A stretch of 64,000 bases of DNA, taken from the sequence record PZ386980.1; one strand, 5' to 3'. The position numbers and the translations under genes are program-made. This stretch comes from a phage. Below are positions 1-21,400 of the stretch, in pieces. A model generated the notes under the pieces. That model had not been told where the DNA came from. It searched no databases and was given only the letters and a program-made list of their open reading frames with translations. Position 1 is the stretch's first letter; each line of letters opens with the position of its first letter.

Positions 1-156
1 GCAATTAAAGAGCTTACCAGGAGAAATAAATTTTTCGTCCTGAATCATTTTTAAAATATGTTCCAACGGAAGATTATATTTTTGAGCAAAATAAGGAAGA
101 CCTGATTGCCAGCTTAAACATACACCATCAATATCAGTCAAAATAGTAGGCTTCAT
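1..156 (-). CDS. HAD-like hydrolase (putative nucleotidase), N-terminal 52 codons only; gene runs off the left edge
   Basis: ATG (rev) at 154-156 overlaps stop of upstream ORF (ATGA); translation MKPTILTDIDGVCLSWQSGLPYF.. has a DxDGV HAD motif I. Confidence 0.45.
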   Translation of the reverse strand, partial: MKPTILTDIDGVCLSWQSGLPYFAQKYNLPLEHILKMIQDEKFISPGKLFNC

Positions 157-617
157 AGAGAGTCTCTTAATAGGTTTAACACATCAATAAATTCAGCTTC
201 GGTTAGTATTGTATCATCTTTTGTTAGACTACTAGCCATGCTGTGCTTCAAAACTTTTCCTTTCGAGGCTTGTAATGCATCACGAAAGCCCTTGTTTTGA
301 ATCGCTGCCTCAAAATACGCATTTGTGTATAATTCTTTCCACGCTGGAGAGTATCTTGAAAACGGAACTCCGAGCCAGAAGAGGGTCCCACGGTCCTGAG
401 CTCTAGCATAAGACCTTCCAGCTTGTTGGGCGGCAAGCCCGGATAACCCAAATACACGACGTTGCTGTTCAACATTTTTCACCTTACATCCTTGGAGAAA
501 TCCTTCAAGACCTCCAAATTGGATACCATCCATAACAAAAGGCCATTGGGCGAAATTACTTAATGCACACGATGGCCATCTAAAATTGCTTCTAATCTCT
601 AACTCAGACATTTTCAA
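153..617 (-). CDS. NADAR-domain (YbiA-like) protein
   Basis: 154-aa track ORF; segment NFRWPSCALSNFAQWPFVMDG resembles the YbiA/NADAR FSNF..WP..DG signature as I recall it. Confidence 0.55.
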   Translation of the reverse strand: MKMSELEIRSNFRWPSCALSNFAQWPFVMDGIQFGGLEGFLQGCKVKNVEQQRRVFGLSGLAAQQAGRSYARAQDRGTLFWLGVPFSRYSPAWKELYTNAYFEAAIQNKGFRDALQASKGKVLKHSMASSLTKDDTILTEAEFIDVLNLLRDSL

Positions 618-810
618 TACTTATAATTTCAACATCAGCCCAATGACCATAGCAAGGAAGACGAAATTCAACTGGCCAGTTAGGGTCCTTTTCTAATATA
701 ATAGACTTAACTTGTGGTTCTTCATGTTCATCAGTATATGGATTTTTATCTGTTACTTTATATGTGACCTTAATGTACTGAATTCCAAAAATCTTATTAA
801 TTATATTCAT
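604..810 (-). CDS. hypothetical protein (68 aa)
   Basis: track ORF, tightly packed same-strand array; no recognisable motif. Confidence 0.45.
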   Translation of the reverse strand: MNIINKIFGIQYIKVTYKVTDKNPYTDEHEEPQVKSIILEKDPNWPVEFRLPCYGHWADVEIISIENV

Positions 811-1004
811 ACTAATTCCTTTAATCCGTAAATAGGAGATAATTCATCACCCATACGAAGGTCTTCATTTCCATCTACCCAGGAAACAATATAAGCCTCT
901 TTTATTTGAACACCACTCCATTTAAATGGAGGTAGAACCTTAGAAATTAATCCAGGTATACCAACTCCCTTTAATTCAACAGTTTGACCTAAAAAGAATT
1001 TCAT
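807..1004 (-). CDS. hypothetical protein (65 aa)
   Basis: track ORF; 4-nt overlap with neighbours typical of coupled phage genes. Confidence 0.45.
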   Translation of the reverse strand: MKFFLGQTVELKGVGIPGLISKVLPPFKWSGVQIKEAYIVSWVDGNEDLRMGDELSPIYGLKELV

Positions 1005-1291
1005 TAAAACCTCATCTGAAAACCATGCGATTTAACATTACCACCGCCAATATCAGAAATGTTAATTTCACTCGCAATTGAAGGGTCAATGTCAATTTCG
1101 CGATTGAGTTTAGTGATAGCTAAAGTATCGTGCCCATTTACTGTACGGAACTCTAGAGGACAAACCACATCAACGTAGTTTTTAATCGATTCACTGGTAG
1201 GCTGCAAATGAGCAGGAAGGTCTTTAGGCGCCTTTGAGAAAACAACTTCACAGAAATTTTTGCGGGTATCAAAATAAGTAGTCATAAACAT
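1004..1291 (-). CDS. hypothetical protein (95 aa)
   Basis: track ORF 1004..1342 trimmed to internal ATG at 1291 preceded by GAGGAA RBS; the longer ORF would read through the hairpin at 1309-1322. Confidence 0.5.
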   Translation of the reverse strand: MFMTTYFDTRKNFCEVVFSKAPKDLPAHLQPTSESIKNYVDVVCPLEFRTVNGHDTLAITKLNREIDIDPSIASEINISDIGGGNVKSHGFQMRF

Positions 1292-1331
1292 AGTATTTTC
1301 CTCAGTAAGGGGCCGAAGCCCCTGTTTTATT

Positions 1332-1697
1332 TTAAATATCAAATTCGTTAAGAACTACATCAAAGATTGCTTCAAGATGCTCAGGTTTAGCTCTGTTACT
1401 CAAAATATGACGAATCCAAGTTTTAACCAGAAGCTTACGATTAGCGCCATTCCAGCAAGGATGGGTCCCTAAATCGCGTTGACGAAAATCATCATCCAGA
1501 GCGATTTTGAAGTTTGAACCTTCCATTGTGATTGAAACCGTGATGCCATTTTCAAATCGCATATAAACGTAATTAGGAGTCATATACTGTTCAATTTCGC
1601 ATACTGATCCATTTTGATGTTTCCAAAGGCAAATAGTATCAATAGAACCTGCAATACCATTAGAAACATATTTACGTTCAAAGTTGATGTAGTTCAT
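1332..1697 (-). CDS. hypothetical protein (121 aa)
   Basis: track ORF; early promoter motif 1735-1763 about 38 nt upstream of start. Confidence 0.55.
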   Translation of the reverse strand: MNYINFERKYVSNGIAGSIDTICLWKHQNGSVCEIEQYMTPNYVYMRFENGITVSITMEGSNFKIALDDDFRQRDLGTHPCWNGANRKLLVKTWIRHILSNRAKPEHLEAIFDVVLNEFDI

Positions 1698-1734
1698 TTT
1701 TATTCTCCGAGATGTTTAATTGCGGTACAGGTAT

Positions 1735-1763
1735 ATAATATCATATCCTGTACCAAAGTAAAC
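1735..1763 (-). promoter_or_regulatory. T4-type early promoter
   Basis: minus strand GTTTAC-17nt-TATTAT, about 38 nt upstream of ATG 1697. Confidence 0.55.
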
Positions 1764-1765
1764 AA

Positions 1766-2098
1766 TTATTTTACTACTTTCCAGTGCTTCATGTCAAGTT
1801 TACCAACTTTTTTCATCTTCTCAATCAAACGTTCGGCACGTTGGCGAGCTGTAACATAATACCATTCGCCTAATTCATTTTGTTCAATTTTTCCAACGAT
1901 TACTGTATTCAATTCATAAATCCAACCAGTAAAGAAATTATGAACTTGAATTGTAAAGGTGAAATCTGTTCCCATACCTTCTGTTGTTTCTACTTCAATA
2001 ATATCACCTTCAACTGCCATTAAGAACCACATAGTTTCATCATATTTACCATTGAAGCATTTAGTCTTAACTGCAGCGTTCAGATTAATCGTTTTCAT
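1766..2098 (-). CDS. hypothetical protein (110 aa)
   Basis: track ORF; AAGGAG RBS (rev of 2105-2110) and early promoter 2126-2155 upstream. Confidence 0.55.
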   Translation of the reverse strand: MKTINLNAAVKTKCFNGKYDETMWFLMAVEGDIIEVETTEGMGTDFTFTIQVHNFFTGWIYELNTVIVGKIEQNELGEWYYVTARQRAERLIEKMKKVGKLDMKHWKVVK

Positions 2099-2125
2099 TT
2101 TATTCTCCTTTGTTTGTGTAAGATA

Positions 2126-2155
2126 ATACTATCACAAAGGAACCATATTGTAAAC
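2126..2155 (-). promoter_or_regulatory. T4-type early promoter
   Basis: minus strand GTTTACA-17nt-TAGTAT; directly downstream of terminator 2175-2203; 28 nt to ATG 2098. Confidence 0.6.
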
Positions 2156-2174
2156 AACTTTGTGTAATCTTTGG

Positions 2175-2203
2175 AAAATAAAAAAGGACTCCCGAAGGAG
2201 TCC
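2175..2203 (-). terminator. rho-independent terminator
   Basis: minus strand GGACUCC-UUCG-GGAGUCC followed by U-run; 6 nt after stop of ORF 2209..2385. Confidence 0.7.
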
Positions 2204-2208
2204 TCAAC

Positions 2209-2385
2209 TTATGCTTTCTGCTTACCAAAACGAGAAGCATCATCTCGAAGAACCGCACGTGCTCGGCGCATGATCTTCTCAACAGTTTGATTGATACGAG
2301 AGTTCGACCCACGCTTGTAGCCAGCGCGTTTAGAATCACCAACTTTCTTTTCAACTGCTTTCTTTGCTTTAGCTTGTTTTGCCAT
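2209..2385 (-). CDS. small lysine/arginine-rich protein (58 aa)
   Basis: track ORF 2209..2427 trimmed to ATG at 2385 (MAKQAKAKKAVEKK..); terminator hairpin immediately downstream at 2175-2203. Confidence 0.45.
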   Translation of the reverse strand: MAKQAKAKKAVEKKVGDSKRAGYKRGSNSRINQTVEKIMRRARAVLRDDASRFGKQKA

Positions 2386-2628
2386 TATAAATTCTCTTTT
2401 AAATGAAAATGCAGGACTTATTGGCATTGCCTGCGCAAGCCCTCAAGGGGAACATAGGTTTTGGATATTTAACGACAGGATAACCATAAACCCGTCATCA
2501 TTCACATTCAAGAGGTACACCATAAAACTGCCGGGGTCTTAAAACTATAATGATTCGCAAATCATTAATCAGACAGTTCGATGGCTCCTCGATTTTAGCT
2601 CACACTAAGGCAGTGAATCTCCAATAAA

Positions 2629-2877
2629 TTACTTCAGTGTTACCACAAAGTGACGAACTGCTTTTCGTGCAGCAGAAGCCAGAGGCTTAGCATACTTAAG
2701 TTCATCTTTTTCCTGAAGCTCAGCAGCTAATGCAGTTTGAGCAGGATTCAGATGTTTGAAATAACGCAGGATTTCAAGAGCTTCGGCTTCAACATCAATA
2801 GATGCGCCATAGTTTTCGTGACCATTATTCCATGCGTTTCGTTGCAGTTCAAGAGCGTGTTGTAATTGTTTAATCAT
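2629..2877 (-). CDS. rIII: RIII lysis-inhibition accessory protein
   Basis: 82 aa; MIKQLQHALELQRNAWNNGHENYG.. matches my recollection of T4 RIII; precedes gene 31 as in T4. Confidence 0.85.
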   Translation of the reverse strand: MIKQLQHALELQRNAWNNGHENYGASIDVEAEALEILRYFKHLNPAQTALAAELQEKDELKYAKPLASAARKAVRHFVVTLK

Positions 2878-3016
2878 TTAAAAATTCTCGTTAGAGATTA
2901 AAACTCGGTAGTCACGTTCTTCTGAATTTCATCTTCTTTCGACAGATCTCTCAGTTGTAGACTACCACATAGAATTGTTCGGTTAACTTATTATTCCGAC
3001 ACCCAATTCATATTAT

Positions 3017-3024
3017 TATTTATA
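3017..3024 (-). promoter_or_regulatory. late promoter motif (possible rIII late promoter)
   Basis: exact TATAAATA on minus strand in the 31-rIII intergenic region, about 140 nt upstream of rIII ATG. Confidence 0.4.
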
Positions 3025-3360
3025 TCACTTATAAAGACACGGAATAGCTTTATAGTGACAAGTAACGAATTTTTGTTTAATTTCTTTTGGCTGCTTAAGA
3101 CCCAGAGCTACAAAAGGATGCGGAACATTTCGAATTTGACCAACTGGAAGAGAAGTCAAATCACCAACTTCGCAAAAACCTTCAGGAACATCAGGACCAA
3201 CAGAGTGAACTACACACAGTTCAGGAACTTCACCTTGAACACGTTTACCGATAATAAGTCCTGATTCTGTAACTTCTTCATCACCGGCTTGTGCGGGTTC
3301 AGAAACTAAAATAACATATTCACCGACAGCACGAATTGGTAGCTGTTGTACTTCAGACAT
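3025..3360 (-). CDS. 31: gp31 head-assembly co-chaperonin (GroES-like)
   Basis: 111 aa; [30 protein letters not shown].. matches recalled T4 gp31. Confidence 0.9.
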
Positions 3361-3416
3361 CGTTTTTCCTTTTTGTTAACAGATGAATTAATAATAACAA
3401 ATAATTCTTAAAGCAT

Positions 3417-3725
3417 TTATTTACCAATAAATTGGAGTAAATGCTCAACTTTCATACCATTAACAGAAATCAATTTGTCAATAGAAAAACCTCGCCATGC
3501 ACCAAGTTCAACATCAAATATTGGAATCATGTCAGTAGATTCTTTCCGAGTCGATTCAGTCAATTTACCAGTTTGCATGGTTGGCATAAAGTCTGCGTCA
3601 CGAGTACCTTTCATAGTACGAATAGTACCATCAGACTTTTCAAAAACTACGTTTGAAACACCCATGGACAGTTTAGTTTTCAAAATTTCACGAATTGCTA
3701 CTTTTTGTTCAGTCGTCAGTTTCAT
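3417..3725 (-). CDS. hypothetical protein (102 aa), position of T4 31.1
   Basis: track ORF between gene 31 and cd. Confidence 0.55.
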   Translation of the reverse strand: MKLTTEQKVAIREILKTKLSMGVSNVVFEKSDGTIRTMKGTRDADFMPTMQTGKLTESTRKESTDMIPIFDVELGAWRGFSIDKLISVNGMKVEHLLQFIGK

Positions 3726-3962
3726 TTATTTACCTATCACAGTTTTAATATGAGTTGTTCCACGTTCTTTAAGAGTGGAAAGCAATTTTTGGCATTTTTC
3801 TAAATCAGATTTCCAACTATATGGTCTATCTATACTAGTCCAATCAGTTTTATAATACTGCTTCCATTTAGAGAAAAAATATTTCTTATACTCTACAGCA
3901 AATGAGATGTTCTCGTTAGAATAAGAACTAATTGCTGTGAGCTTTACCAAACGAAATTTCAT
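3726..3962 (-). CDS. hypothetical protein (78 aa), position of T4 31.2
   Basis: track ORF; start overlaps cd stop. Confidence 0.5.
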   Translation of the reverse strand: MKFRLVKLTAISSYSNENISFAVEYKKYFFSKWKQYYKTDWTSIDRPYSWKSDLEKCQKLLSTLKERGTTHIKTVIGK

Positions 3963-4543
3963 TATTCACCACAGAATTCGTTGATATTTTCCCAGTTTAA
4001 CTTATTCAAGTTTTTCTTAGGAACATTAAACACTTCAATACCTGCATTTCGCAGAATATCATCCCAGCCAGGTTTATTTTTATCGTATGTTTCGCAATAA
4101 ACCAGTTTTTTAATACCAGATTGAGCTATCGCTTTTGCACAATCCGGACATGGAGAAAGTGTTACATACATAGTAGCACCTTCAATAGAAGAACCATTTC
4201 GTGCAGCAAACAAAATTGCATTTAGTTCAGCATGAATTTCATTTTTAGACGACCATTCAGAGTGAGCGCTCCGGTGTTCTTTTGCCAAGACAAAACGATC
4301 AGTTGAACCAAATGATACACATTCGGGCTTATGACCTTGGATGATAGTATGTTTAGGTTTATTTAGCAACCAACCTTGCTCAGCAGCATAATCACAACAG
4401 TTCACACCCCCTGCGGGGGAACCATTATACCCAGTAGAAATAATACGTCCATTCTTTTCAATTACTGCTCCTACCTTCCAGGAGCAACATTTTGATTCCT
4501 GCGATACTAAATATGCAATTTGAAGTACTGTACTCGCTTTCAT
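3962..4543 (-). CDS. cd: dCMP deaminase
   Basis: 193 aa; zinc-deaminase motifs HAELNAI and PCPDCAKAI; matches recalled T4 Cd. Confidence 0.9.
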   Translation of the reverse strand: MKASTVLQIAYLVSQESKCCSWKVGAVIEKNGRIISTGYNGSPAGGVNCCDYAAEQGWLLNKPKHTIIQGHKPECVSFGSTDRFVLAKEHRSAHSEWSSKNEIHAELNAILFAARNGSSIEGATMYVTLSPCPDCAKAIAQSGIKKLVYCETYDKNKPGWDDILRNAGIEVFNVPKKNLNKLNWENINEFCGE

Positions 4544-4878
4544 TTCATAATCACCAGATAAGCAGATTTAGCAGTTTCAACACGATAAATTTCGTGACGA
4601 AGTTTAGTTATACTTTTAATAACAGAACTAATTATATTCTGCCCATCTTTAAAGCGGTTTTTCTTGTCAATAAAAATTGCGCCAATCATCTTTTTGTGAA
4701 GCTCAACTGGATACTTCGTCACAATAATAGCATCATATACAGAAGGATGAATACTATTTACTAGAGTGTCATTCATTAAAGTTATTCTAATGAACTGTGC
4801 TGTTTCAGAGTCAAGCGCTCTATGATCGCCAGTATCATTTTCAAGACAATTATCAATTATATCAGTTAAATTCATCAT
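4540..4878 (-). CDS. hypothetical protein (112 aa)
   Basis: track ORF in cd-pseT accessory array. Confidence 0.5.
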   Translation of the reverse strand: MMNLTDIIDNCLENDTGDHRALDSETAQFIRITLMNDTLVNSIHPSVYDAIIVTKYPVELHKKMIGAIFIDKKNRFKDGQNIISSVIKSITKLRHEIYRVETAKSAYLVIMK

Positions 4879-5114
4879 AGTACGCCATACACCCTTTGTG
4901 CTTCAACTAATCCATCAAAATCTAATTTAAGATGCGATATTTGATCGCCATCACCTGGATTCACAATTACTAATACTGAGCGAGGAGTTTCGGTAATAAC
5001 ACGAACCGATGTTTCAGGAAATCGTTCAGAAACCTTATTTACCAATTCCTGTGCAAATAGCTTAACTTTTTCTTGGAATTCTTTAACAGTAATCGGTTTT
5101 TCACTTAGCAGCAT
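4875..5114 (-). CDS. hypothetical protein (79 aa)
   Basis: track ORF 4875..5210 trimmed to ATG 5114 with GAGGAA RBS; early promoter 5144-5173 lies inside the longer track ORF. Confidence 0.5.
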   Translation of the reverse strand: MLLSEKPITVKEFQEKVKLFAQELVNKVSERFPETSVRVITETPRSVLVIVNPGDGDQISHLKLDFDGLVEAQRVYGVL

Positions 5115-5143
5115 TTTGTTTTCCTCATTTGTTTGGTAGAGCC

Positions 5144-5173
5144 ATAATATCACAACTCTACCGTAAAGTAAAC
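5144..5173 (-). promoter_or_regulatory. T4-type early promoter
   Basis: minus strand GTTTAC-18nt-TATTAT; 30 nt to ATG 5114. Confidence 0.55.
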
Positions 5174-5175
5174 TA

Positions 5176-5451
5176 TTAAATTGCTTTGAATTCTGCTGTC
5201 TGCGATTCAAAACGAATATCGCCTTTGATAACTAACTCAGCATCAAGACCGAATACTACAATGATATGCGCGGAACCTGGATACAGCGTAATGGCAACAG
5301 AATCCACCTGGTCTGGAAGCAAAGTGTTCAATACATGAGTCACTTGAGCATGGATTCGAAGTTCGGCTGCGTTATCAAGCTTTTCAAACATATTATTAGC
5401 GATAATTTGACTAAACACTACTTCTACAATTTTAGAATAAGTCGGAAACAT
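5176..5451 (-). CDS. hypothetical protein (91 aa)
   Basis: track ORF trimmed to ATG 5451 preceded by GAGGT RBS. Confidence 0.5.
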   Translation of the reverse strand: MFPTYSKIVEVVFSQIIANNMFEKLDNAAELRIHAQVTHVLNTLLPDQVDSVAITLYPGSAHIIVVFGLDAELVIKGDIRFESQTAEFKAI

Positions 5452-5453
5452 AT

Positions 5454-5654
5454 TTACCTCACATAATTTTCTTCGAGCCAATCAATAACATCCAACGCAT
5501 TATCAAAAGTTGAACCATCTACTTTGTCTTCTGTTTCATAATCAAGAACATCTAGGCCTACTCTTCCATCAACAATAGGCCATAAACAAAACAGGTATTT
5601 CTTTTCTTTTTCAATTTTATCGCAAAGACGATAAATCTTTTCTATGTTATTCAT
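5454..5654 (-). CDS. hypothetical protein (66 aa)
   Basis: track ORF. Confidence 0.5.
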   Translation of the reverse strand: MNNIEKIYRLCDKIEKEKKYLFCLWPIVDGRVGLDVLDYETEDKVDGSTFDNALDVIDWLEENYVR

Positions 5655-5843
5655 AAGTTTTCCATGGTAAAGGCAGTTTAGTTTTCTTTACTGTTAGTTC
5701 AACATCAGGATTCTTTTCTCTTAATTTAAGGCATTCCTCCCAAGCTCTGATTTCACTAGTGAATACACAAAATTGCCCATTACTAGTACCGACTAAACCG
5801 CTATTTACAATAATAATAGCCCAAGTTTCATGATGCCACGCCA

Positions 5844-5844
<1 letters not shown>
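5647..5844 (-). CDS. hypothetical protein (65 aa)
   Basis: track ORF trimmed to ATG 5844 which overlaps the pseT stop by 1 nt (TAATG). Confidence 0.45.
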
Positions 5845-7044
<1,200 letters not shown>

Positions 7045-7048
<4 letters not shown>

Positions 7049-7275
7049 TTATTTTTCTCAACCAATGATTGAATATAATCATGCAGGTCTTTAGATGCTT
7101 TACCCCACTTATTTTGATATTCATTTTTGAGATTAGCGCGTGATTGAGCTAATAAAACATCATTAGTTGGAGGTAAAGATTCTAATCGTTGAATCTGTCG
7201 TCCATAAATCATTGCAGCCATCTCGGATTCATAAATTAATCCTTTTAGATGTTCAAATTGATACCATGAAATCAT
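7045..7275 (-). CDS. hypothetical protein (76 aa)
   Basis: track ORF. Confidence 0.5.
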
Positions 7276-7571
7276 TTACATTTATCCTCTTTTAGCTCTT
7301 GACGATAATAACATATCATAGTTTTCTGGTCATGTACATATCGTTTTACATCATTAAGCCAAATACGAAATTCCTGAGAATCTTCAAATGGCATACCTAC
7401 CCAAGCTTTACCATCAATAACTTTAACTTGCCAAGATAGTTTAGCTTCGTCATATGACTTTATTTGCACAGGCCAATTAGGATGAACTGTTTCTTTCTTT
7501 ACTTCTAGAGGCTTTGTCGAACAACCAACTAGAAGACCAATAGATAATATTACTGCAGATAATTTAATCAT
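7272..7571 (-). CDS. outer-membrane spanin (o-spanin) lipoprotein
   Basis: 99 aa; signal peptide with lipobox LLVGC then C at +1; Cys-containing periplasmic part; position of T4 pseT.2. Confidence 0.65.
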   Translation of the reverse strand: MIKLSAVILSIGLLVGCSTKPLEVKKETVHPNWPVQIKSYDEAKLSWQVKVIDGKAWVGMPFEDSQEFRIWLNDVKRYVHDQKTMICYYRQELKEDKCK

Positions 7572-7921
7572 TTAGAAAGGTCCTGGATGTCTTCTGCGAA
7601 CTTGTTGAAGGAGTTGTTGATTTGTTTTTCAACCAATCCTGGCTTACGAACCACCACATCCGCCTTCTTTGCATCTTTGCGCAGTTTTTCATTTTCATGC
7701 TCAATAGCAGCAATCGCCTCACGATTTTTATTATTCATCGCATCAATATAATTATACTGAATTCGCAAATTATTTAATGCTAAGGCGTTTTCATTGGCCG
7801 TTTTTGTAATTTCAGTAACTGATGTTTCTAATCTTTCTACCTTATTTTTTAAAATAATAGATGTTCCGCCAAATGCTATTACAAGTAATAGCAATCCAGC
7901 TGTAAAATTACTTACATGCAT
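7568..7921 (-). CDS. inner-membrane spanin (i-spanin)
   Basis: 117 aa; N-terminal TM segment (LLLLVIAFGGTSIIL) followed by coiled-coil-like region; position of T4 pseT.3. Confidence 0.65.
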   Translation of the reverse strand: MHVSNFTAGLLLLVIAFGGTSIILKNKVERLETSVTEITKTANENALALNNLRIQYNYIDAMNNKNREAIAAIEHENEKLRKDAKKADVVVRKPGLVEKQINNSFNKFAEDIQDLSK

Positions 7922-8418
7922 AAAGTTTTAATAACCTCTATAATATCGTCTTGAGAAAGACCGTTAATTAAAATATGATGTTCAACCGGAGATTTAGAAA
8001 TTTTAAAGCACGCCGCAACATCTTCTGCCATATCCGATGCGCTACGATTTGGATTACTAATTCCAAGACGATGCTTTCCCGTCAAAGGATTAACGATGAT
8101 ATAGCATTTGCAGCTATTGATGTGAACATTAGGTTGAGTCTGATTAATGAATACTTCACAATCGTATTTCGCAAACTGATTTTCTAAAAAGACTTTCATC
8201 TCCTCAACCGCATCAGGAAGCATATCACGGGCTTGCTCAAGACGACGATTTCGATATTCTTTAATGGTCGTTTTCCGCTTGACTTGCTTAGCTAAATCTT
8301 TCTTAAGATCGGTGATATATCCAACTCGACGATTTCCTTTGAATACAGAAATCCCATCTGTAGTATCACCGTATGCTTCAACGACCATTTCAGTAGTAAT
8401 AAGCTGCAAATCCATCAT
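7912..8418 (-). CDS. alc: Alc, inhibitor of host transcription on cytosine DNA
   Basis: 168 aa; size, position between spanins and rnlA, and sequence consistent with recalled T4 Alc. Confidence 0.75.
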   Translation of the reverse strand: MMDLQLITTEMVVEAYGDTTDGISVFKGNRRVGYITDLKKDLAKQVKRKTTIKEYRNRRLEQARDMLPDAVEEMKVFLENQFAKYDCEVFINQTQPNVHINSCKCYIIVNPLTGKHRLGISNPNRSASDMAEDVAACFKISKSPVEHHILINGLSQDDIIEVIKTLCM

Positions 8419-8446
8419 AAAGTCCTCATGTTATGTCAGTAAGACT

Positions 8447-8476
8447 ACTATAACACAACATGAGGGACTTGTAAAC
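8447..8476 (-). promoter_or_regulatory. T4-type early promoter upstream of alc
   Basis: minus strand GTTTACA-17nt-TATAGT; 29 nt to alc ATG 8418. Confidence 0.6.
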
Positions 8477-8479
8477 AGC

Positions 8480-10067
<1,588 letters not shown>

Positions 10068-10094
10068 AATAAAATGGGCCTTGCGGCCCACTCC

Positions 10095-11273
10095 TTAAAA
10101 GTATTTTTTAAAACTCATCATAACTTTATCATCAACATCATTATCAATCTGTGCAACAAGATAAGATGACAGTTCTACTTCTTGCGGCGCGGATTGAACA
10201 TTATCAGAATTAAGGTATTCACGAATCCAAGGATATGGATGTTTAACCGGAGCATCGGTAATCGGGCATGGAAGACCACACTGTTTCATACGAGATACAG
10301 TTAAGTAATCAATAAAGCTCCACATGCTATTTGTATTTAATCCAGGAACATCGCCATCTTTAAATAAATGAACTGCCCAATCTTTTTCTTGGCGGTTAAC
10401 TTCCATGAAAATATCAACTGCTTCTTGTTCACACTCTTTGGCAATTTTAACCCATTCATCACCATCAGTGCCAAGTTGAAGTTGACGAATAATATATTGT
10501 GTACCTTTAAGATGAAGCTGCTCATCACGTGCAATGAACTTCATAATCTTGGCATTACCTTCCATGATTTCCATGTTTTTATGGAAGTTAAAGGTACACG
10601 CAAAGGATACATAAAAACGAATAGCTTCTAATGCATTAATAACGTGCAAACAGAGGTAAAGAGAGCGCATTAGTTCACGTTTCCAATACATTTCATGCTC
10701 TATGGCATCTTTAATATCATCTTCGTCTGCGTTAATTTCTTTTTGGTACTCAATATCAGCTTTAGCATTCTGCCAATATCTAGTTTTCTCAATAACATCA
10801 TCATAATAACGACCAATAGATTCAGCACGTTTCATGATAGCTTTATCTAATACAATCTCATCAAATACCTTTGACGGATCAGTATAAAGATTTCGCATAA
10901 TATGAGTGTATGAACGACTGTGAATAGTTTCACTAAAAGTCCATGTAGCAACCCATGTATCAAGGCTTGGGTCTGAAATCAATGACATAAGTACAGCAGA
11001 CGGTGCACGACCCTGAATGCTATCCAGAAGTGATTGATACTTCAGATTATTAGTAAAAATATTCTGCTGATATTGAGGAAGCTTATTAAACTGTGCAGCA
11101 TCCATCATTAAGTTTACTTCTTCAGGACGCCAGAAAAATGACAACTGCTTTTCGGTTAAATCTTCAAAAACTTTATGACGTTGAATATCATAACGCGCAA
11201 TACCAAGACCTGAACCAAAAAACATAGGTTCTTTTAAAACATCAACTGGATTTGTATTAAAAACTGTGCTCAT
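10095..11273 (-). CDS. nrdB: ribonucleotide reductase small subunit, uninterrupted
   Basis: 392-aa continuous ORF matching recalled T4 NrdB; no intron-sized interruption. Confidence 0.92.
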   Translation of the reverse strand: MSTVFNTNPVDVLKEPMFFGSGLGIARYDIQRHKVFEDLTEKQLSFFWRPEEVNLMMDAAQFNKLPQYQQNIFTNNLKYQSLLDSIQGRAPSAVLMSLISDPSLDTWVATWTFSETIHSRSYTHIMRNLYTDPSKVFDEIVLDKAIMKRAESIGRYYDDVIEKTRYWQNAKADIEYQKEINADEDDIKDAIEHEMYWKRELMRSLYLCLHVINALEAIRFYVSFACTFNFHKNMEIMEGNAKIMKFIARDEQLHLKGTQYIIRQLQLGTDGDEWVKIAKECEQEAVDIFMEVNRQEKDWAVHLFKDGDVPGLNTNSMWSFIDYLTVSRMKQCGLPCPITDAPVKHPYPWIREYLNSDNVQSAPQEVELSSYLVAQIDNDVDDKVMMSFKKYF

Positions 11274-11324
11274 AAATTTTCCGCTTAGTTAATAGTTGGT
11301 GACTCGTCCGTGAGTCAAATTATA

Positions 11325-13589
11325 TCATAATTTACAGGATGAACAATCTTCAGCTTTTGGAGTTTCTATTTCATAATCATCAGTACCAGAACCATCACGG
11401 GTATTATGATAATAGAAATTTTTTCCGCCAAAATACCAAAAATACAAAAGGTCATCAATCATTATTGACATTGGAACCTTTCCTTTTGGAAAAATCTGCG
11501 GGTCATAATATGTATTCGCTGAAGCTGATTGACATACCCATTTCAGCATAATAGCTACCTGCGTAAGATAAGGTTTATTACCTTTCTTAGCTAATTTCCA
11601 TGTATAATCATATAGGTCTATGTTATGTTCAATATTGGGCACGACTTGATTAAAGGAACCCTCTTTTGATTCTTTAACAGAGACTGGTCCACGTGGAGGC
11701 TCGATACCGTTTGTACTGTTAGAAACTTGGGAAGATGACTCACATGGCATAAGTGCTGATAGTGTGCTATTACGGATGCCAAAGAGCTTAAGGTCTTCCC
11801 GCAGCGACGACCAGTCACAAACGTATTTTGGAGCTGCGATTTGGTCAATCTTTTTATTGTACCAGTCGATAGGTAATTCGCCTCGAGACCAACGAGTGTC
11901 TGAATAATATTCGCAAGGTCCTTTTTCTTTGGCGAGCTTAATGGATGCTTTAATGAGTCCATACTGTAATCTCTCAAATAGTTCATGTGTTAAATCGTTA
12001 GCATCTTCATAAGAAGCAAAGTTACTTGCCAACCAAGCTGCATAGTTAGTAACACCTACACCGAGGTTACGACGCTTTTTAGCTTTTTCTGCTTCAGGAA
12101 CTGGATATCCTTGGTAATCCAAAAGATTATCAAGAGCACGAACCTGGACTTCTGCCAATTCATTAATTTTATCTTGGTCTTGCCAGTCAAAATTATCCAG
12201 TACGAATGCAGAGAGAGTACACAATCCAATTTCAGCATCAGGACTATTCACATCATTTGTTGGAATAGCAATTTCACAGCACAAGTTACTCTGACGAATA
12301 GGTGCCTTTTCACGAATAAACGGAGTATAGTTATTCGTATTATCAATGAACTGTACATAAATCCTTGCTGTTCCTGAGCGTTCAGTCATGAGCAATTCAA
12401 ATAGTTCACGAGCTTTAATACGCTTTTTACGAATATTAGGGTCTTTTTCTGCTGCTTCGTATAATTCACGGAAACGGTCTTGGTCTTTAAAATAAGAATA
12501 ATAAAGCTCTCCGCCCATTTCATGGGGACTGAACAAAGTAATGTAATCGTTCTTTCCAAAACGTTCCATCATCAAATCATTCAGTTGAACACCATAATCC
12601 ATATGACGAATGCGGTTTTCTTCTACGCCTTTGTTATTTTTCAAAACAAGAAGATTTTCAACTTCCAAATGCCAAATAGGATAATAAGCAGTAGCAGCGC
12701 CGCCACGAATTCCACCCTGTGAGCATGATTTAACAGCAGTCTGAAAATGTTTCCAAAAAGGAATAACACCAGTATGGCGTACTTCACCCATGCCAATCTT
12801 AGAACCTTCAGCACGAATCATACCAACGTTAATACCAATTCCAGCGCGTTTAGAGATATATTCAACAATTGAAGCGGAAGCCTTATTGATAGACTTTAAT
12901 GAATCACCTGCCTCAATAACAACGCATGAACTAAACTGCCGAGTTGGAGTACGGCAACCAGCCATAATAGGAGTTGGTAATGAAATCTGTCGAGTAGATA
13001 CCGCTTCATAAAAACGGATAACATGTTTTAATCTATCAGCAGGTTCATCTTGATGCAATGCCATTCCAATAGTCATAAATGCAAACTGTGGAGTTTCATA
13101 AATTTGACCAGTGGTTTTATCTTTAACTAGATATTTTTCTTTTAATTGCATCGCCCCGGAATAAGTAAATTCCATATCCCGCTCGTGCTTAATTTTTGAT
13201 TCTAAAAATGTAATTTCTTCTGCTGAATATTTTGACAATAATTCAGGGTCATATTTACCTTCATTTACACAGTAAGAAATATGGTCAATAAATGAACGTG
13301 GTTCATACTGCCCATAAACATGCTTACGAAGAGCAAACATTAAACAGCGTGCAGCTACATATTGATAATCAGGTTCTTCAACCGAAATAGAATTCGCAGC
13401 GGCCTTAATGACAATAGTCTGAATATCATCAGTTGTCATTCCATCACGGAGATAAGATTTAATATTTTCATATAATTCATAAGGATCTACTGATGTTCCT
13501 TCAGCTGCCCAAGATAAAACTTTAATAATTTTTTGTGGGTCAAAGCTCTGAGAAACACCACTACTTTTGATAACATTAATTAATTGCAT
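11325..13589 (-). CDS. nrdA: ribonucleotide reductase large subunit
   Basis: 754 aa; active-site region NLCCEIA and C-terminal CSSCKL; matches recalled T4 NrdA. Confidence 0.92.
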   Translation of the reverse strand: MQLINVIKSSGVSQSFDPQKIIKVLSWAAEGTSVDPYELYENIKSYLRDGMTTDDIQTIVIKAAANSISVEEPDYQYVAARCLMFALRKHVYGQYEPRSFIDHISYCVNEGKYDPELLSKYSAEEITFLESKIKHERDMEFTYSGAMQLKEKYLVKDKTTGQIYETPQFAFMTIGMALHQDEPADRLKHVIRFYEAVSTRQISLPTPIMAGCRTPTRQFSSCVVIEAGDSLKSINKASASIVEYISKRAGIGINVGMIRAEGSKIGMGEVRHTGVIPFWKHFQTAVKSCSQGGIRGGAATAYYPIWHLEVENLLVLKNNKGVEENRIRHMDYGVQLNDLMMERFGKNDYITLFSPHEMGGELYYSYFKDQDRFRELYEAAEKDPNIRKKRIKARELFELLMTERSGTARIYVQFIDNTNNYTPFIREKAPIRQSNLCCEIAIPTNDVNSPDAEIGLCTLSAFVLDNFDWQDQDKINELAEVQVRALDNLLDYQGYPVPEAEKAKKRRNLGVGVTNYAAWLASNFASYEDANDLTHELFERLQYGLIKASIKLAKEKGPCEYYSDTRWSRGELPIDWYNKKIDQIAAPKYVCDWSSLREDLKLFGIRNSTLSALMPCESSSQVSNSTNGIEPPRGPVSVKESKEGSFNQVVPNIEHNIDLYDYTWKLAKKGNKPYLTQVAIMLKWVCQSASANTYYDPQIFPKGKVPMSIMIDDLLYFWYFGGKNFYYHNTRDGSGTDDYEIETPKAEDCSSCKL

Positions 13590-13906
13590 AAGTCCTCAAC
13601 TTGAAAATCGTCTTTAAACAATCGGTTAACTATATGAGCTATTATATCACCATGACACGGCTTTGGTTTACATGTGCATCCTAGCCTCATTCCACGTAAA
13701 GGCTCTAAATGTGCTTTAGTTATTTCTCCGGATTTAATTCGACGTATAAAATCTTTTTTGAATAATTCAATGGCAGCCTCCCGGCTGCCAGCATCTTTAC
13801 CGACGTAATTTCCCCAAAATGTACCACGGTGAATATTAACATCAAAGTCGGATTTATATTTATTCACTACTCGGCATATACGGCCTGCGCGGTTGTAAGT
13901 GTTCAT
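13580..13906 (-). CDS. DUF4326-like small protein (108 aa)
   Basis: track ORF; [13 protein letters not shown] motif; GGAAG RBS 5 nt upstream of ATG 13906. Confidence 0.55.
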
Positions 13907-14135
13907 ATTGTTCTTCCGTTAAAACAGTAATATCGTAGTAACAGTCAGAAGAAGTTTTAACTGTGGAAATTTTATTATCAAAATACTCACGAGTCATTTT
14001 ATGAGTATAATATTTTTTGCCATAAATGATAATAGGCTGATTTGGTCCTGGAACTTCTAACTCACTTGGATTAGGAAGTGTAAAAAGAACTACACCAGAA
14101 GTATCTTTAAATCGTAAAATCATATATCCTCGCAA
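13860..14135 (-). CDS. hypothetical protein (91 aa)
   Basis: track ORF; 3' end overlaps next gene by 47 nt. Confidence 0.5.
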
Positions 14136-14143
14136 TAATAAAA

Positions 14144-15004
14144 TTACACCGCCATCTTTCCTTTAATAGGAGGATGTGATTCATAGTTGTTAAGAACAAA
14201 ATTATGAGGCTTTGCAAATTGACTCAACCAAAATACCTGCGATTCTGTGTCCCATTCATCAAATTCATCTGGAAATTTTAATTGTAATTCGCATAAATCC
14301 ATAGGTTCACGACATAAAATTTCTTTACATTGTTCTACGTGATTCATATAGATATGAGTATTACCACCAGAAAATATCAAATCTCCCGGAATAAGATTAC
14401 ACATCTTAGCTACAATATGAACTAACGTAGCATATGATGCAATATTAAATGGAAGACCGAGGAAAACATCTACCGAACGTTGATACCACTGAAGGTCAAG
14501 GTATCCATTACGCACATTAAACTGATAGAACATATGACAAGGCGGTAATGCCATATATTTAAGTTCAGCTGGATTCCACGCAGAAACAATTTGACGCCTA
14601 TCATTTGGCAGTTTTTTAATACGATCAATAACTTCTATAATTTGATCTACACCGCCAAAATCACGCCACTGTTTTCCATAAATTGGACCAAGTTCACCGC
14701 TATGGTATCCTAAATCTTTTGCTTGATTTTCGTAATTTTCATCCCAGACTGTTTTGCCTTGAATTAATGAATCATGTTGAATTAATCGCAAATCATTGAC
14801 ATTTGTGCTTCCTGATAAAAACCATATTAGCTCAGCAATGCATGCATTCCAGGCGAGCTTTTTAGTTGTTACTGCAGGAAAACCTTTGGTTAAATCCCAA
14901 CGCAATTTAGTACCGAACAAAGCAATTGTTCCTGTGCCCGTTCGGTCATCGGTTTCATAGCCATTTTCAAAAATGTCTTTAATTAAATCTTGGTATTGTT
15001 TCAT
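14144..15004 (-). CDS. td: thymidylate synthase, uninterrupted
   Basis: 286-aa continuous ORF ([26 protein letters not shown]..); no intron. Confidence 0.92.
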
Positions 15005-15049
15005 TTAGTACCTTATATAAATTATAATACATTTTATGAAGCTAAATAA

Positions 15050-15397
15050 TCAATACGGTTTAGCATCAAATTTTCTCCCAATTTCAGGCGTGAAATATAA
15101 TTCTTTACCGCGTTTGGAAAAGCGACCAATAATATGATAATTATTCTCATCAAACGTGATATTACCAATATCCATAGCTTTCAACCAAATATCGATATTT
15201 CTATCCAGCTTTATGTCAAAATTCCAATACGGAGAACTATTACCGAAAATACTACAAGCGGATTCAGTGAAACAACTGCTATAAATCTTGTCTTTAGGAA
15301 CTACTAATTGATAGACACCTTTAATAAACTGAGGACCCTGCCACTTTGGCTGTTTCTCATCTTTTTCTAATAGAATAGGGTAATAATTAAAATTCAT
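15050..15397 (-). CDS. hypothetical protein (115 aa) inserted between frd and td
   Basis: track ORF; no counterpart in T4 as I recall (frd and td adjacent there). Confidence 0.5.
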   Translation of the reverse strand: MNFNYYPILLEKDEKQPKWQGPQFIKGVYQLVVPKDKIYSSCFTESACSIFGNSSPYWNFDIKLDRNIDIWLKAMDIGNITFDENNYHIIGRFSKRGKELYFTPEIGRKFDAKPY

Positions 15398-15416
15398 ATT
15401 TCCGCCGCGCGTTATT

Positions 15417-16336
<920 letters not shown>

Positions 16337-16428
16337 TATATTTTCCTCAAATTCATTTAAATCAAGACTATGCAATTTTTAAAGCATTGCATAATAGAAT
16401 TCATCATTCATAAACTCAAATACAAAAA

Positions 16429-16788
16429 TTATATTATCTCCCATCGAAAAGGGTCAGGAGCATATCCGATAGAGTTAATCATTTTAACTAAAGTTACCAT
16501 TCCTTTGTTAACTGCTTGTGCGATTTCATCAAAAACTTCATCGCTATCATCATAAAGGTCATTAAAAAGTTCTAACACGTTCTTCTGAACTTTTAATTTA
16601 TGACCAACAATCTCGCCTACAGTAAATTCGTTTCCGCCGATTCCAGTGTAAAACGTAATTACACCAGTTAACAGACTTTCGCGAGAATCTAGGTCATGTG
16701 ATAAATTAATATAAGCCATCCCGGGTGCAGTTTTAAGTTGGCAACGAATTCTTACTTGGGTAATTCCGGTTACATGAATGTCGGACAT
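16429..16788 (-). CDS. hypothetical protein (119 aa)
   Basis: track ORF 16429..16953 trimmed to ATG 16788 (MSDIHVTG..) with GAGGAA RBS; removes overlap with upstream gene. Confidence 0.5.
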   Translation of the reverse strand: MSDIHVTGITQVRIRCQLKTAPGMAYINLSHDLDSRESLLTGVITFYTGIGGNEFTVGEIVGHKLKVQKNVLELFNDLYDDSDEVFDEIAQAVNKGMVTLVKMINSIGYAPDPFRWEII

Positions 16789-16798
16789 ATTATTTTCC

Positions 16799-17038
16799 TC
16801 ACGCTTTCTTAGCGACTTTCCAGTCAGCTTTAAATTGGTCAACGTCAGAGTGATGAATCCAGAAACCAGATGAGCTACCATCTTCATAAAGAGGACAACC
16901 ATCACACTCATCTTCCCATCCCATATCACGTAAAAGATGTTCAGCTTTTTCAATGAGTTCAGAATCTTTACCGATGATATTAAAATACCATTTACCTCTA
17001 ACTTCTGAATCTTTGATGCTCTGGCGTTGTAATCTCAT
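16799..17038 (-). CDS. hypothetical protein (79 aa)
   Basis: track ORF trimmed to ATG 17038 with GAGGAG RBS; early promoter 17065-17094 just upstream. Confidence 0.5.
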   Translation of the reverse strand: MRLQRQSIKDSEVRGKWYFNIIGKDSELIEKAEHLLRDMGWEDECDGCPLYEDGSSSGFWIHHSDVDQFKADWKVAKKA

Positions 17039-17064
17039 TTTATTCTCCTCAAGTTGATAGGGTA

Positions 17065-17094
17065 ATAGTATCACACTACTACCCTGTTGTAAAC
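17065..17094 (-). promoter_or_regulatory. T4-type early promoter
   Basis: minus strand GTTTACA-acagggtagtagtgtga-TACTAT; 27 nt to ATG 17038. Confidence 0.6.
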
Positions 17095-17096
17095 AA

Positions 17097-17357
17097 TTAT
17101 TTTTGAATTTTATCGAGCCACTTACCAAGCTTAATCATTTCTTTAGTAGCCTTTTCCATACTTCTGAACTTAACCAATAGAGGATAGGTATCGACACCCA
17201 TAACTAAACTGGTTACAAGACTGTGTTCACCCACAAGCCATAACGAATACGTTTGAATATCGAGTCCGTAATTTCTGTCTTTATGGACCCGTACACCCAT
17301 CACTTCAAATTTCTCACTAGCTTTTTCTACCGCATCCAGGAAATCATCTTTAGTCAT
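17097..17357 (-). CDS. hypothetical protein (86 aa)
   Basis: track ORF trimmed to ATG 17357, 1 nt after upstream stop; start uncertain (alternative 17399). Confidence 0.4.
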   Translation of the reverse strand: MTKDDFLDAVEKASEKFEVMGVRVHKDRNYGLDIQTYSLWLVGEHSLVTSLVMGVDTYPLLVKFRSMEKATKEMIKLGKWLDKIQK

Positions 17358-17358
17358 A

Positions 17359-17745
17359 TTAGGCCTTAAAAGTTTTTCGCAAAAGTTCAATGATTTCATC
17401 TACATTGTTTTCGTCAACAATGCAGTGAATTTTTGTTACGCCAGAAACTATACCTTCATTAGCGGATTGAGGCTTTTCTAAAGTTACCTCAGTAAAGTAT
17501 TTGAATTCTTCAGAGTAAATCTCAAAATACGTCTCAAGTGGGCCACCCGCCATGTATTCAGTACCATCTTCCATAGTTACACGTACCACACATTCACCAG
17601 CACAATCATCACTTTCCATTTCATCTACAACAAAACTAGGTCCGTGCTTCTCTATTAAATTTAGCATCATTACATTGCAACGGCACTCGTTAGCAAAGTC
17701 ATTTTTAAATAAAGGGTTAATGATATAAGTTTTTCCAACTTCCAC
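17359..17745 (-). CDS. hypothetical protein (128 aa)
   Basis: track ORF; apparent GTG start with GAGGAA RBS 6 nt upstream. Confidence 0.5.
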   Translation of the reverse strand: MEVGKTYIINPLFKNDFANECRCNVMMLNLIEKHGPSFVVDEMESDDCAGECVVRVTMEDGTEYMAGGPLETYFEIYSEEFKYFTEVTLEKPQSANEGIVSGVTKIHCIVDENNVDEIIELLRKTFKA

Positions 17746-17791
17746 TTTGATTTCCTCATTTTAACGGGGCTATCAAATAGCCCCTTGATAA

Positions 17792-18022
17792 TTATTGTTC
17801 AATCAGTCCCATGTAAAATTCTGCGTCTTCAGAATCCATGCCATCGCAATATTCATTAGCCATAAAGCGGGTAAGGTCTTCAAGAGGACCTTCAATGACA
17901 ATAGAAAAATTGCAATAATTGGGATCATCATGAATACTTGTGATACTAAGTTCAGGATAACGATTACGAATAATCTCTTCAATATATTCAAAATCAACGA
18001 TGTCAATATCAACTTTAGCCAT
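17792..18022 (-). CDS. hypothetical acidic protein (76 aa)
   Basis: track ORF trimmed to ATG 18022 with AAGAGG RBS; early promoter 18066-18095 upstream. Confidence 0.5.
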
Positions 18023-18065
18023 ATTATTTTCCTCTTTGATCATCAGCAGTATTGCCGATAGTTGT

Positions 18066-18095
18066 ATAGTACCATGGAAGGACAAGGATGTAAAC
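18066..18095 (-). promoter_or_regulatory. T4-type early promoter with A/T-rich UP region
   Basis: minus strand GTTTACA-tccttgtccttccatgg-TACTAT; sits just downstream of the gene 32 terminator. Confidence 0.6.
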
Positions 18096-18114
18096 AGTTT
18101 TGTGAAAAAATTTT

Positions 18115-18145
18115 TGAAATAAAAAAGGGGACCTCTAGGGTCCCC
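18115..18145 (-). terminator. rho-independent terminator after gene 32
   Basis: minus strand GGGGACC-cuaga-GGUCCCC followed by UUUUUU; 24 nt after gene 32 stop. Confidence 0.7.
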
Positions 18146-18168
18146 AATTAATTAGTAATTATAATCTA

Positions 18169-19077
18169 TTAAAGGTCATTCAAAAGGTCATCCAGGTCCG
18201 TGTCATCAGCACTAGATGAACTACCAGAGCTTGAGCTCATAAAATCATCTTCAGTTTTTGTATTGAAGTCATCAACATTGAATGCATCCAAATCATCAGC
18301 AACTTTATCAGCTTTCTTAGCAGCAGTTGCAGCGGCACCGCCCATCACAGCAGTTCCCATAACTTGACCGAATTTAGTATTCAGTTCTTCAAACGATTTG
18401 AATTTATCTTTAGAAGTCATTTCAGAAAGGTCAACCATTTGTTCGAACAGTTCTTTCTGGAAAGATTCATCGTCAATGTTTGGAATCGCAGATTGATTCA
18501 GGAATTTAGATTCGTCGTAGTTACTAAAACCAGAAACTTGTTTAACTTTCAGTACAAAGTTAGCACCTTCCCACGGACAAGTTACATCAACCGGAGTTTC
18601 ACCCATTTCAACATCAACTGCAATCATTGCATTGATTTTATCCCAGATTTTCTTACCGAAACGGTATTTAAATACTTTACCTTCATTTTCTGGAGCAGCT
18701 GGGTCTTTTACTACAAGAATGTTAGCCCAGTAAGAAGTTTTACGTTTAACAAGACCGTACTCTTTATTGTCAGTGTTGTATAAATCATTTTTACTGATGT
18801 ACTGACATACTGGGCAAGAATCGTAATCACCGTGGGTAGATGAACAGTTTTCAATATACCATTTACCATTTTTCTTGAAACCGTGATTTACAAGAATTGC
18901 GAATGGTGCTTGTTCATCATTTTTAGACGGAAGAAAACGAATTACTGCTTGACCGTTACCCGCATTGTCGAGTTTCAGTTTCCACTCGCCTTTATCTTCA
19001 GAAGAAAAACCACCTTTATTTCCAGCCAGTTTAGCCATTTGTGCAGCGAGTTCAGCAGTAGATTTACGTTTAAACAT
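18169..19077 (-). CDS. 32: gp32 single-stranded DNA-binding protein
   Basis: 302 aa; [37 protein letters not shown].. and acidic Ser/Asp C-terminal tail; matches recalled T4 gp32. Confidence 0.95.
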
Positions 19078-19160
19078 TTTTATTTCCTTTTTAATTTAAT
19101 TAACAGTTGGTGCTATGACGATGTATGACCTCATAGCTGGTCAGTGAGATAATTATAATT

Positions 19161-19168
19161 TATTTATA
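19161..19168 (-). promoter_or_regulatory. late promoter motif upstream of gene 32
   Basis: exact TATAAATA on minus strand about 85 nt upstream of gene 32 ATG; adjacent TGCTT MotA-like core at 19171-19180. Confidence 0.45.
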
Positions 19169-19176
19169 ATAAGCAA

Positions 19177-19830
19177 TTAATACTTACAAGATTTCACAGT
19201 TTCAATAAAAACTTTTTTAGCTTCCTGTGAATCGATATTTAAAATTTTTCTATAAGCTTTTAACTTTATAGAATAATTGTTCCAAACTAAATTATCAGTT
19301 TGTTCATCATGTTTATCAATTATATTTAAAAACGAATCAAGCAAGATAAACGTCTCAAACGAAATTATGTTCGATTGCAGAAGTTTAAAAATATAACTTG
19401 ATTGAACTTTTGGATTATATTCAAAAATTTCTTTAAAAGCAGAAACTTCAACTTTTTTACTAAAATAATAAATGTTGCGAATATCTTCTTCAAACTTAAA
19501 TTTAATTTGCTTTAAGCGTCCGATATATTCACGATAAAACACAAGTGCATCAGCGTCAGAGATGTCACCAATCCAAGCATCTTGGTTAGCAACCAAATTA
19601 CTTATAAAGATTAAAGCAAGTTCCTTTAATTTATATTTTTCTGATAACTTCTGAAAAAAATACTTATCCCTTCGCTTTTGATAAGCGGCATCAGACACCC
19701 GCATGCACCAATTATACTTAATTACATCATACTTTCCATTCATATGTTGTTTTATCATTAAGTATAATTTATAAACTGATTTACCATCAATGTATCTTTC
19801 ACCACCAGCAGGCATGCGGAGTTTAATCAT
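19177..19830 (-). CDS. 59: gp59 helicase loader
   Basis: 217 aa; matches recalled T4 gp59 (MIKLRMPAGGERYIDGKSVYKLYLMIKQHMNGKYD..). Confidence 0.9.
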   Translation of the reverse strand: MIKLRMPAGGERYIDGKSVYKLYLMIKQHMNGKYDVIKYNWCMRVSDAAYQKRRDKYFFQKLSEKYKLKELALIFISNLVANQDAWIGDISDADALVFYREYIGRLKQIKFKFEEDIRNIYYFSKKVEVSAFKEIFEYNPKVQSSYIFKLLQSNIISFETFILLDSFLNIIDKHDEQTDNLVWNNYSIKLKAYRKILNIDSQEAKKVFIETVKSCKY

Positions 19831-20165
19831 AGCAGAAAATCTAATGTATTAGTTTTTTCACAACGAACAACAGAAGGACGTAAAAGATTTTCGTCAATAG
19901 CTTCTGACTGAATTTTTTCAATTATACCCGAAGGAATAAATTTAGCAAATTGAGTTTCAGGAATAGAATTTTCTTCCAAGAATGCTGTCGTAGCTTCAAG
20001 ATAACTCATTCCAAACTCTTCTACCATTTTTTCAATAATAAATCCATTTTCTTGGCGGTCAAGAAGCTTTGCAATTTCATCCTTTTCTTTCTTAATTGAA
20101 AGTTCTTTTTCTGAAAGCCCGGCCTCATCGACCGGGCGAATATCATTTAGAGAAAACTGTGTCAT
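19827..20165 (-). CDS. 33: gp33 late-transcription co-activator
   Basis: track ORF trimmed to ATG 20165 (MTQFSLNDIRPVDEAG..), 112 aa as recalled for T4 gp33. Confidence 0.88.
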   Translation of the reverse strand: MTQFSLNDIRPVDEAGLSEKELSIKKEKDEIAKLLDRQENGFIIEKMVEEFGMSYLEATTAFLEENSIPETQFAKFIPSGIIEKIQSEAIDENLLRPSVVRCEKTNTLDFLL

Positions 20166-20412
20166 AAAGTTCAACTACCTCTTCAGTTTCAGCTTCAAAC
20201 ACATCACGGTTATCTTTATGATATAGAGCCAAAAGACGATTAAACATCTTGCCATCAACACCAAGTTCATCTTTGGCACGAATTCGAATATCTTTAATTA
20301 ATTCATTATAACCGGAAATTTTCAGTTTATGATCAGATGCTTCTTTAATAAATTTAGCCAAGTCTTCGCCGTGGATAGCTTCATCAAATTCAACCATTTC
20401 TTTTTTAGCCAT
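20143..20412 (-). CDS. dsbA: DsbA double-stranded DNA-binding protein (late transcription)
   Basis: 89 aa; MAKKEMVEFDEAIHGEDLAKFIKEASDHKLK.. matches recalled T4 DsbA. Confidence 0.85.
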   Translation of the reverse strand: MAKKEMVEFDEAIHGEDLAKFIKEASDHKLKISGYNELIKDIRIRAKDELGVDGKMFNRLLALYHKDNRDVFEAETEEVVELYDTVFSK

Positions 20413-20420
20413 TATTCACC

Positions 20421-21338: not shown

Positions 21339-21367
21339 ATGAACCTCGTTCAATTAGTGAGATTTCT

Positions 21368-21397
21368 ATTATATACCATCCAAATCTTAAAGTAAAC
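21368..21397 (-). promoter_or_regulatory. T4-type early promoter upstream of rnh
   Basis: minus strand GTTTAC-18nt-TATAAT; 30 nt to rnh ATG; back-to-back with gene 34 late promoter. Confidence 0.6.
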
Positions 21398-21400
21398 AAG

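Follow-up and report, generated by a model that had tools for sequence, protein, structure and literature searches.

Gene 30.3 of phage RB51, an adfN orthologue: a probable early NADAR-type eraser of guanine ADP-ribosylation in DarTG1-carrying hosts

The stretch of phage DNA analysed here (64,000 nucleotides of sequence record PZ386980.1, hereafter the window) begins with a short leftward reading frame, and the question raised by this locus is whether the frame encodes an enzyme that removes ADP-ribose and thereby protects the phage against DarTG-like defences. A first-pass annotation, made from the letters and a list of open reading frames, had proposed such a role after noticing one peptide, NFRWPSCALSNFAQWPFVMDG, that resembles NADAR/YbiA domains. 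Our preferred reading, to which a probability of roughly 0.93 is assigned, is that the frame is RB51 adfN and that its product is an early, core-only NADAR N-glycosidase that clears guanine ADP-ribose so that replication proceeds in DarTG1 hosts.

The frame at 153..617 on the minus strand runs without interruption, contains the quoted peptide in its product and encodes 154 aa when counted from TTG, as in the ORF list. BLAST comparison with RB51 loci placed the whole window at 128146..168394 plus 1..23751 of RB51 (NC_012635) with 100% identity, and its first 3 kb are also identical (100%) to RB68 and Ac3. In the RB51 and T4 annotations the same frame is gene 30.3, which starts at an ATG (position 611) two codons downstream of the TTG at 617. 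This ATG is the better start, and numbering of the resulting 152-aa protein from it brings the published catalytic residues to E36 and K43 (Table 1).

Table 1. Features of the gene 30.3 locus in the window
Feature	Position	Strand	Remarks
adfN / gene 30.3 CDS	153..611	-	152 aa plus stop; probable NADAR-fold DNA ADP-ribosylglycohydrolase; mechanical ORF reaches TTG 617
30.4/30.3 overlap ATGTCTGA	604..611	-	8 nt; 30.3 start lies within the end of 30.4 (604..810)
N-terminal NADAR motif A16-L17-S18-N19-F20	552..566	-	Invariant in 51 family members
Glu36, catalytic, codon GAA	504..506	-	Invariant in the 51-member alignment; opposite YbiA E48
Lys43, ADP-ribose-contacting, codon AAG	483..485	-	At least 90% conserved in the 51-member alignment; opposite YbiA K55
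Gene 30.3' (annotated in T4)	248..475	-	+1 frame inside 30.3; 75 aa
His123, codon CAC	243..245	-	Invariant in the alignment of 51 homologues
C-terminal alpha-helix, residues 138-152	156..200	-	Intact, same as T4; helix 138-151 in the model
30.3/30.2 ATGA overlap	153..156	-	30.3 stop TGA 153-155; 30.2 start ATG 154-156

Gene 30.3 belongs to a densely packed leftward early string (30.8, 30.7, 30.6, 30.5, 30.4, 30.3, 30.2, 30.1, 30, alt.1 and alt), in which it is surrounded by 30.4, 30.2 (function unknown, with only its 5' end, 1..156, in the window), 30.1 (DUF3045) and gene 30, which encodes DNA ligase. A strong Shine-Dalgarno sequence was looked for upstream of the 30.3 start and was absent, which together with the overlap between 30.4 and 30.3 suggests that 30.3 may be translated by coupling within the 30.8-30 early gene string; the ATGA overlap at its other end likewise suggests possible translational coupling into 30.2. 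DarT1 (a BC4486-like ADP-ribosyltransferase) is absent among the neighbouring genes, and 30.3 is thus an orphan antitoxin-like gene and not part of a toxin-antitoxin system. Among eight T4-like phages examined, a 30.3 homologue lies a few kilobases or less upstream of the DNA ligase gene in five (AbTZA1, kvi, RB43, T4 and RB69), with the two genes directly overlapping in the RB49-like phage kvi; this linkage is commoner than that between 30.3 and 30.2. Farther upstream, gene 30.9 is followed by a strong terminator-like hairpin (2184..2205, minus strand; 9 bp, of which 5 are G-C, with a T-run behind it), and 30.8 is directly preceded by a promoter-like site whose -10 element is extended by TG (2126..2154, minus strand). 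Taken together, the two may indicate where the transcription unit containing 30.3 begins, with the reservation that a promoter and terminator scan of 1..3000 returned site numbers not above the shuffled-sequence level.

The family assignment of the protein is unambiguous at one level and indirect at another. It matches the Pfam family Phage_30_3 (PF08010) over the entire profile (positions 1-138 of 138; E=4.1e-70; 234.4 bits, with the gathering cut-off at 36) and PHROG 652 (E=2e-51), and homologues of 30.3 were detected by tblastn in 1511 records of phages, the majority being Straboviridae with Escherichia, Klebsiella, Aeromonas, Acinetobacter and Vibrio as hosts; taken together, these matches exclude a chance ORF. 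On the other hand, the refuting outcome named in the first-pass annotation, a lack of significant NADAR profile matches, did occur for this one protein when taken literally. As a single sequence, the 30.3 protein gave no match to Pfam NADAR (PF08719) at E<=10, to NCBIfam or, by phmmer, to PDB sequences. Through its family the relationship emerges: among 51 diverse family members collected in one alignment, 20 match PF08719 (best E=1.5e-7), one database homologue bears PF08010 and PF08719 together, and several are named YbiA/DUF1768 by JGI. The profile built from the 51 sequences retrieved E. coli YbiA from PDB sequences by hmmsearch (E=0.0075), and hhalign aligned it with YbiA at 92.8% probability (E=4.1e-7, 90 columns, residues 15-122). 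For the structure, a single-sequence AlphaFold model was unusable (pLDDT 37.6) and a model from the 51-sequence alignment was used in its place, in which the 30.3 protein is predicted to adopt the alpha+beta organization of the NADAR fold, with a helical core and small beta-hairpins at its flanks. NADAR membership is therefore clear, but is seen only via family members, profile-profile comparison and structure.

The active site is conserved in the same alignments. The N-terminal motif A16-F20 lies opposite YbiA D28-F-S-N-F32 in both hmmsearch and hhalign (F29-S30-N31-F32 in the hmmsearch alignment), and the catalytic Glu and Lys of the first core helix (cf. PnNADAR E43; T4 E36 and K43) are both present, aligned with the YbiA residues given in Table 1; the conservation of catalytic residues is thereby confirmed. 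His123 directly follows the last beta-strand (residues 120-122 in the alignment-based model), and since the hhalign alignment stops at K122/YbiA V124, it falls opposite YbiA E125. This His is the defining mark of the gp30.3 clade of phage NADARs, the corresponding position being Glu in YbiA-type and Asp in DarT1-associated NADARs (PMC11125620, PMC11543638, PMC12945103).

The C-terminus is also intact. RB69 adfN has been reported to be inactive owing to a frameshift that takes off the last 15 residues, making it a DarTG1-sensitive allele (PMC11825919). In our alignment the RB69 protein ends at residue 137, and the lost helix is still encoded in the +1 frame as LEAEFIDVLNLLRDSL. Many database gp30.3 entries from T4-like phages (phage UFV09 included) are short (83-126 aa) or joined to fragments of neighbouring families, which suggests that frameshifted or truncated adfN alleles resembling that of RB69 may recur in nature, although some of the short entries may be assembly or gene-calling artefacts.

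What this protein does can be read largely from its close T4 relative. Between the window protein and T4 gp30.3 the identity is 98%; both are 152 aa long and differ only by I53V, I125M and G128S, which are conservative substitutions (Ile and Met are both seen at position 125 in the family); the window allele is identical to that of RB14. Johannesman et al. (Nat Commun 2025) mapped the DarTG1 resistance of T-even phages to 30.3 and renamed the gene adfN, for anti-DarT factor NADAR (PMC11825919). T4 lacking adfN becomes sensitive to DarTG1, RB69 is rescued by ectopic adfN, and purified T4 AdfN, but not its E36A variant, takes ADP-ribose off DarT1-modified DNA, with E36A and K43A giving only partial rescue (PMC11825919). 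In vitro, T4 gp30.3 hydrolyses guanine-ADPr but not thymine-ADPr (PMC11125620), and it does not remove cytidine-ADPr (PMC12945103). A transposon screen of T4 agrees, insertions in 30.3 having disappeared specifically when the hosts carried DarTG1. On K-12 the gene is non-essential (PMC11825919). The enzymatic activity and the anti-DarTG1 phenotype thus come from published work on the T4 protein, while the present analysis established the identity of the gene, its fold and motifs, and the integrity of the catalytic residues and the C-terminus. By analogy, we infer that the three conservative substitutions leave RB51 AdfN acting like its T4 counterpart.

Along these lines, AdfN would be a minimal, core-only NADAR-fold N-glycosidase produced early in infection. 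The DarT1 toxin of the host would ADP-ribosylate guanines of replicating phage DNA, and AdfN would hydrolyse the bond between guanine N2 and ribose, freeing ADP-ribose and restoring the base, so that replication could go on in DarTG1-carrying hosts. Catalysis would depend on two residues of the first core helix, Glu36 and Lys43, together with His123 after the last strand, and the C-terminal helix (residues 138-152) would be required for function. The fold, motifs and catalytic residues, combined with the published activity of the T4 protein, uphold the initial proposal of a NADAR/YbiA-type eraser directed against DarTG-like defences.

A different role would be that the enzyme chiefly erases or tunes the marks that Alt, ModA or ModB place, whether on host proteins or on RNA, instead of countering a host defence. 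Iyer et al. (2022) described T4-like NADARs as expressed early together with ADP-ribosyltransferases (PMC9503650). The genomic context is compatible with this, as 30.3 and alt share one early leftward string (alt, alt.1, 30, 30.1, 30.2, 30.3), an Alt-like gene lies close to the 30.3 homologue in Acinetobacter phage AbTZA1, and modA (52415..53017) and modB (53014..53637) were located in the window, as the first-pass annotation had stated, both on the minus strand. However, the three transferases Alt, ModA and ModB target the side chain of arginine, and the NADAR activities that have been characterised concern base N-glycosidic bonds. The T4 NADAR acts on G-ADPr and leaves T-ADPr and C-ADPr (PMC11825919, PMC11125620, PMC12945103), and the adfN deletion phenotype is limited to DarTG1 hosts, the gene being dispensable on K-12 (PMC11825919). 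We therefore consider such a role very unlikely, and the accompanying suggestion that the gene regulates the phage's own ModA and ModB finds no support, given a NADAR activity on bases and a DarTG1-specific phenotype. Still smaller is the likelihood that the enzyme degrades soluble ADP-ribose-derived molecules instead of DNA adducts, such as cADPR-type signals, by-products of RNA repair or YbiA-like intermediates of the riboflavin pathway: the 98%-identical T4 protein removes ADPr from DNA in vitro and has a DarTG1-specific genetic phenotype (PMC11825919, PMC11125620), and a second, soluble substrate is not needed by the evidence.

For T4-type AdfN, full function depends on T-even infection. 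In uninfected E. coli, T4 AdfN fails to relieve the toxicity of DarT1, and it hardly rescues the non-T-even phages T5 and Bas25 (PMC11825919, PMC11125620), so that the picture of a free-standing eraser is incomplete and a T-even-specific requirement exists; a T-even-specific co-factor was suggested by the authors of that work (PMC11825919). The product of the gene just downstream, gp30.2 (278 aa; PHROG 420, a family of unknown function), was considered as the missing partner in view of the ATGA overlap between the two genes, and gave no match to Pfam or PDB sequences. Its homologue immediately follows that of 30.3 in T4, RB69 and Acinetobacter phage AbTZA1 and lies about 1 kb downstream in RB43, so that the two are near each other in 4 of 8 phages examined; in the RB49-like phage kvi, Vibrio phage PVA23, Ochrobactrum phage ORM_20 and Salmonella phage NP4, no 30.2 homologue was found within 3 kb of 30.3. 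In the accessible portion of the T4 transposon study, adfN is the sole gene named as lost on DarTG1 hosts and 30.2 goes unmentioned. On the basis of this neighbourhood pattern and of what that portion of the study names, an obligatory partnership was rejected, and gp30.2 is an unlikely candidate for the co-factor.

Two further features of the region deserve mention. Within 30.3, the T4 annotation lists gene 30.3' as an "internal translation in a different reading frame". This frame is open in RB51 and T4, and contains stops in RB69 and most distant homologues; when synonymous codons were permuted, 417 of 5000 trials reached an equal open length. On these two grounds, 30.3' as an overlapping gene is not distinguishable from chance, and it is probably no conserved gene. 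Elsewhere in the window, the frame at 58524..59156 (minus strand) encodes gp61.2, a homologue of AdfA, which is the other anti-DarT1 factor described in the literature. This gp61.2 and RB69 AdfA are 84% identical, and the residue at the position of RB69 R164 is His (TENNINHIAS), as in the T4-like allele that neutralises DarT1. Directly beside the gene lies a shorter, 61.2-like paralogue (58166..58522, minus strand), and the C-terminal motif SIDDQIFNAFMN(R/K)G is common to both. With adfN and gp61.2 both present, RB51 has two layers of anti-DarTG1 genes.

A functional connection had also been proposed between 30.3 and a DUF4326-like ORF at 13580-13906. The domain assignment proved correct: this is a stand-alone DUF4326 protein (Pfam E=5.5e-22) encoded on the minus strand between nrdA and td, at the nrdA.1 position, the start of its ORF overlapping the end of a DUF5496 ORF (13860..14135) and its end overlapping the start of nrdA (11325..13589) by 10 nt (13580..13589). 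Its match to PHROG 464 covers only profile positions 183-300 of 322, and other members of that family may be longer, multi-domain proteins. DUF4326-NADAR fusions have been published in distant viruses (PMC9503650), which provides a precedent for the proposed connection. As a functional partner of 30.3, the ORF was rejected: the two genes lie 13 kb apart, all of its close homologues (72/72) are stand-alone PF14216 proteins, and no direct link was found.

The biology of AdfN/gp30.3 is already known, having been characterised genetically, biochemically and phylogenetically, and the biological gain of the present analysis is small. Its value lies mainly in annotation, as the RB51, RB14 and RB68 records still give the 30.3 product as "hypothetical protein"; a corrected start codon and a functional annotation of RB51-type records are the useful outputs, and RB51, RB14 and RB68 are predicted to resist DarTG1. 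It also illustrates that a genuine counter-defence gene can be recovered by a sequence-only reading of a short motif.

Comparison with known NADAR systems places the RB51 protein closest to T4 gp30.3/AdfN, of which it is the orthologue, encoded at the same genomic place (30.4-30.3-30.2-30.1-30-alt.1-alt) and retaining E36, K43, H123 and the C-terminal helix. DarG1, the DarT1-associated NADAR antitoxin (BC4488 family; G. lovleyi NADAR, PDB 8BAT), differs in several respects: the RB51 gene is an orphan with no adjacent DarT, its product is core-only and lacks the N-terminal helix and beta-sheets that DarG1 has in addition, and it has His123 in place of the DarG1 catalytic Asp. Moreover, DarG1 is an antitoxin, whereas T4-type AdfN is none in uninfected cells (PMC11825919, PMC11125620). 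E. coli YbiA (PDB 2B3W; PF08719) shares about 17-19% identity with the RB51 protein, and its Glu125 occupies the position of the phage His123. The substrates of YbiA are riboflavin intermediates and also C-ADPr, on which other NADARs act too but which the phage clade leaves untouched (PMC12945103). AdfN(Bas32) and AdfN(Bas60) of T5-like and Vequintavirinae phages are likewise phage NADARs that counter DarTG1, but they represent branches acquired independently of the T4 type and, unlike it, neutralise DarT1 without infection and rescue unrelated phages (PMC11825919).
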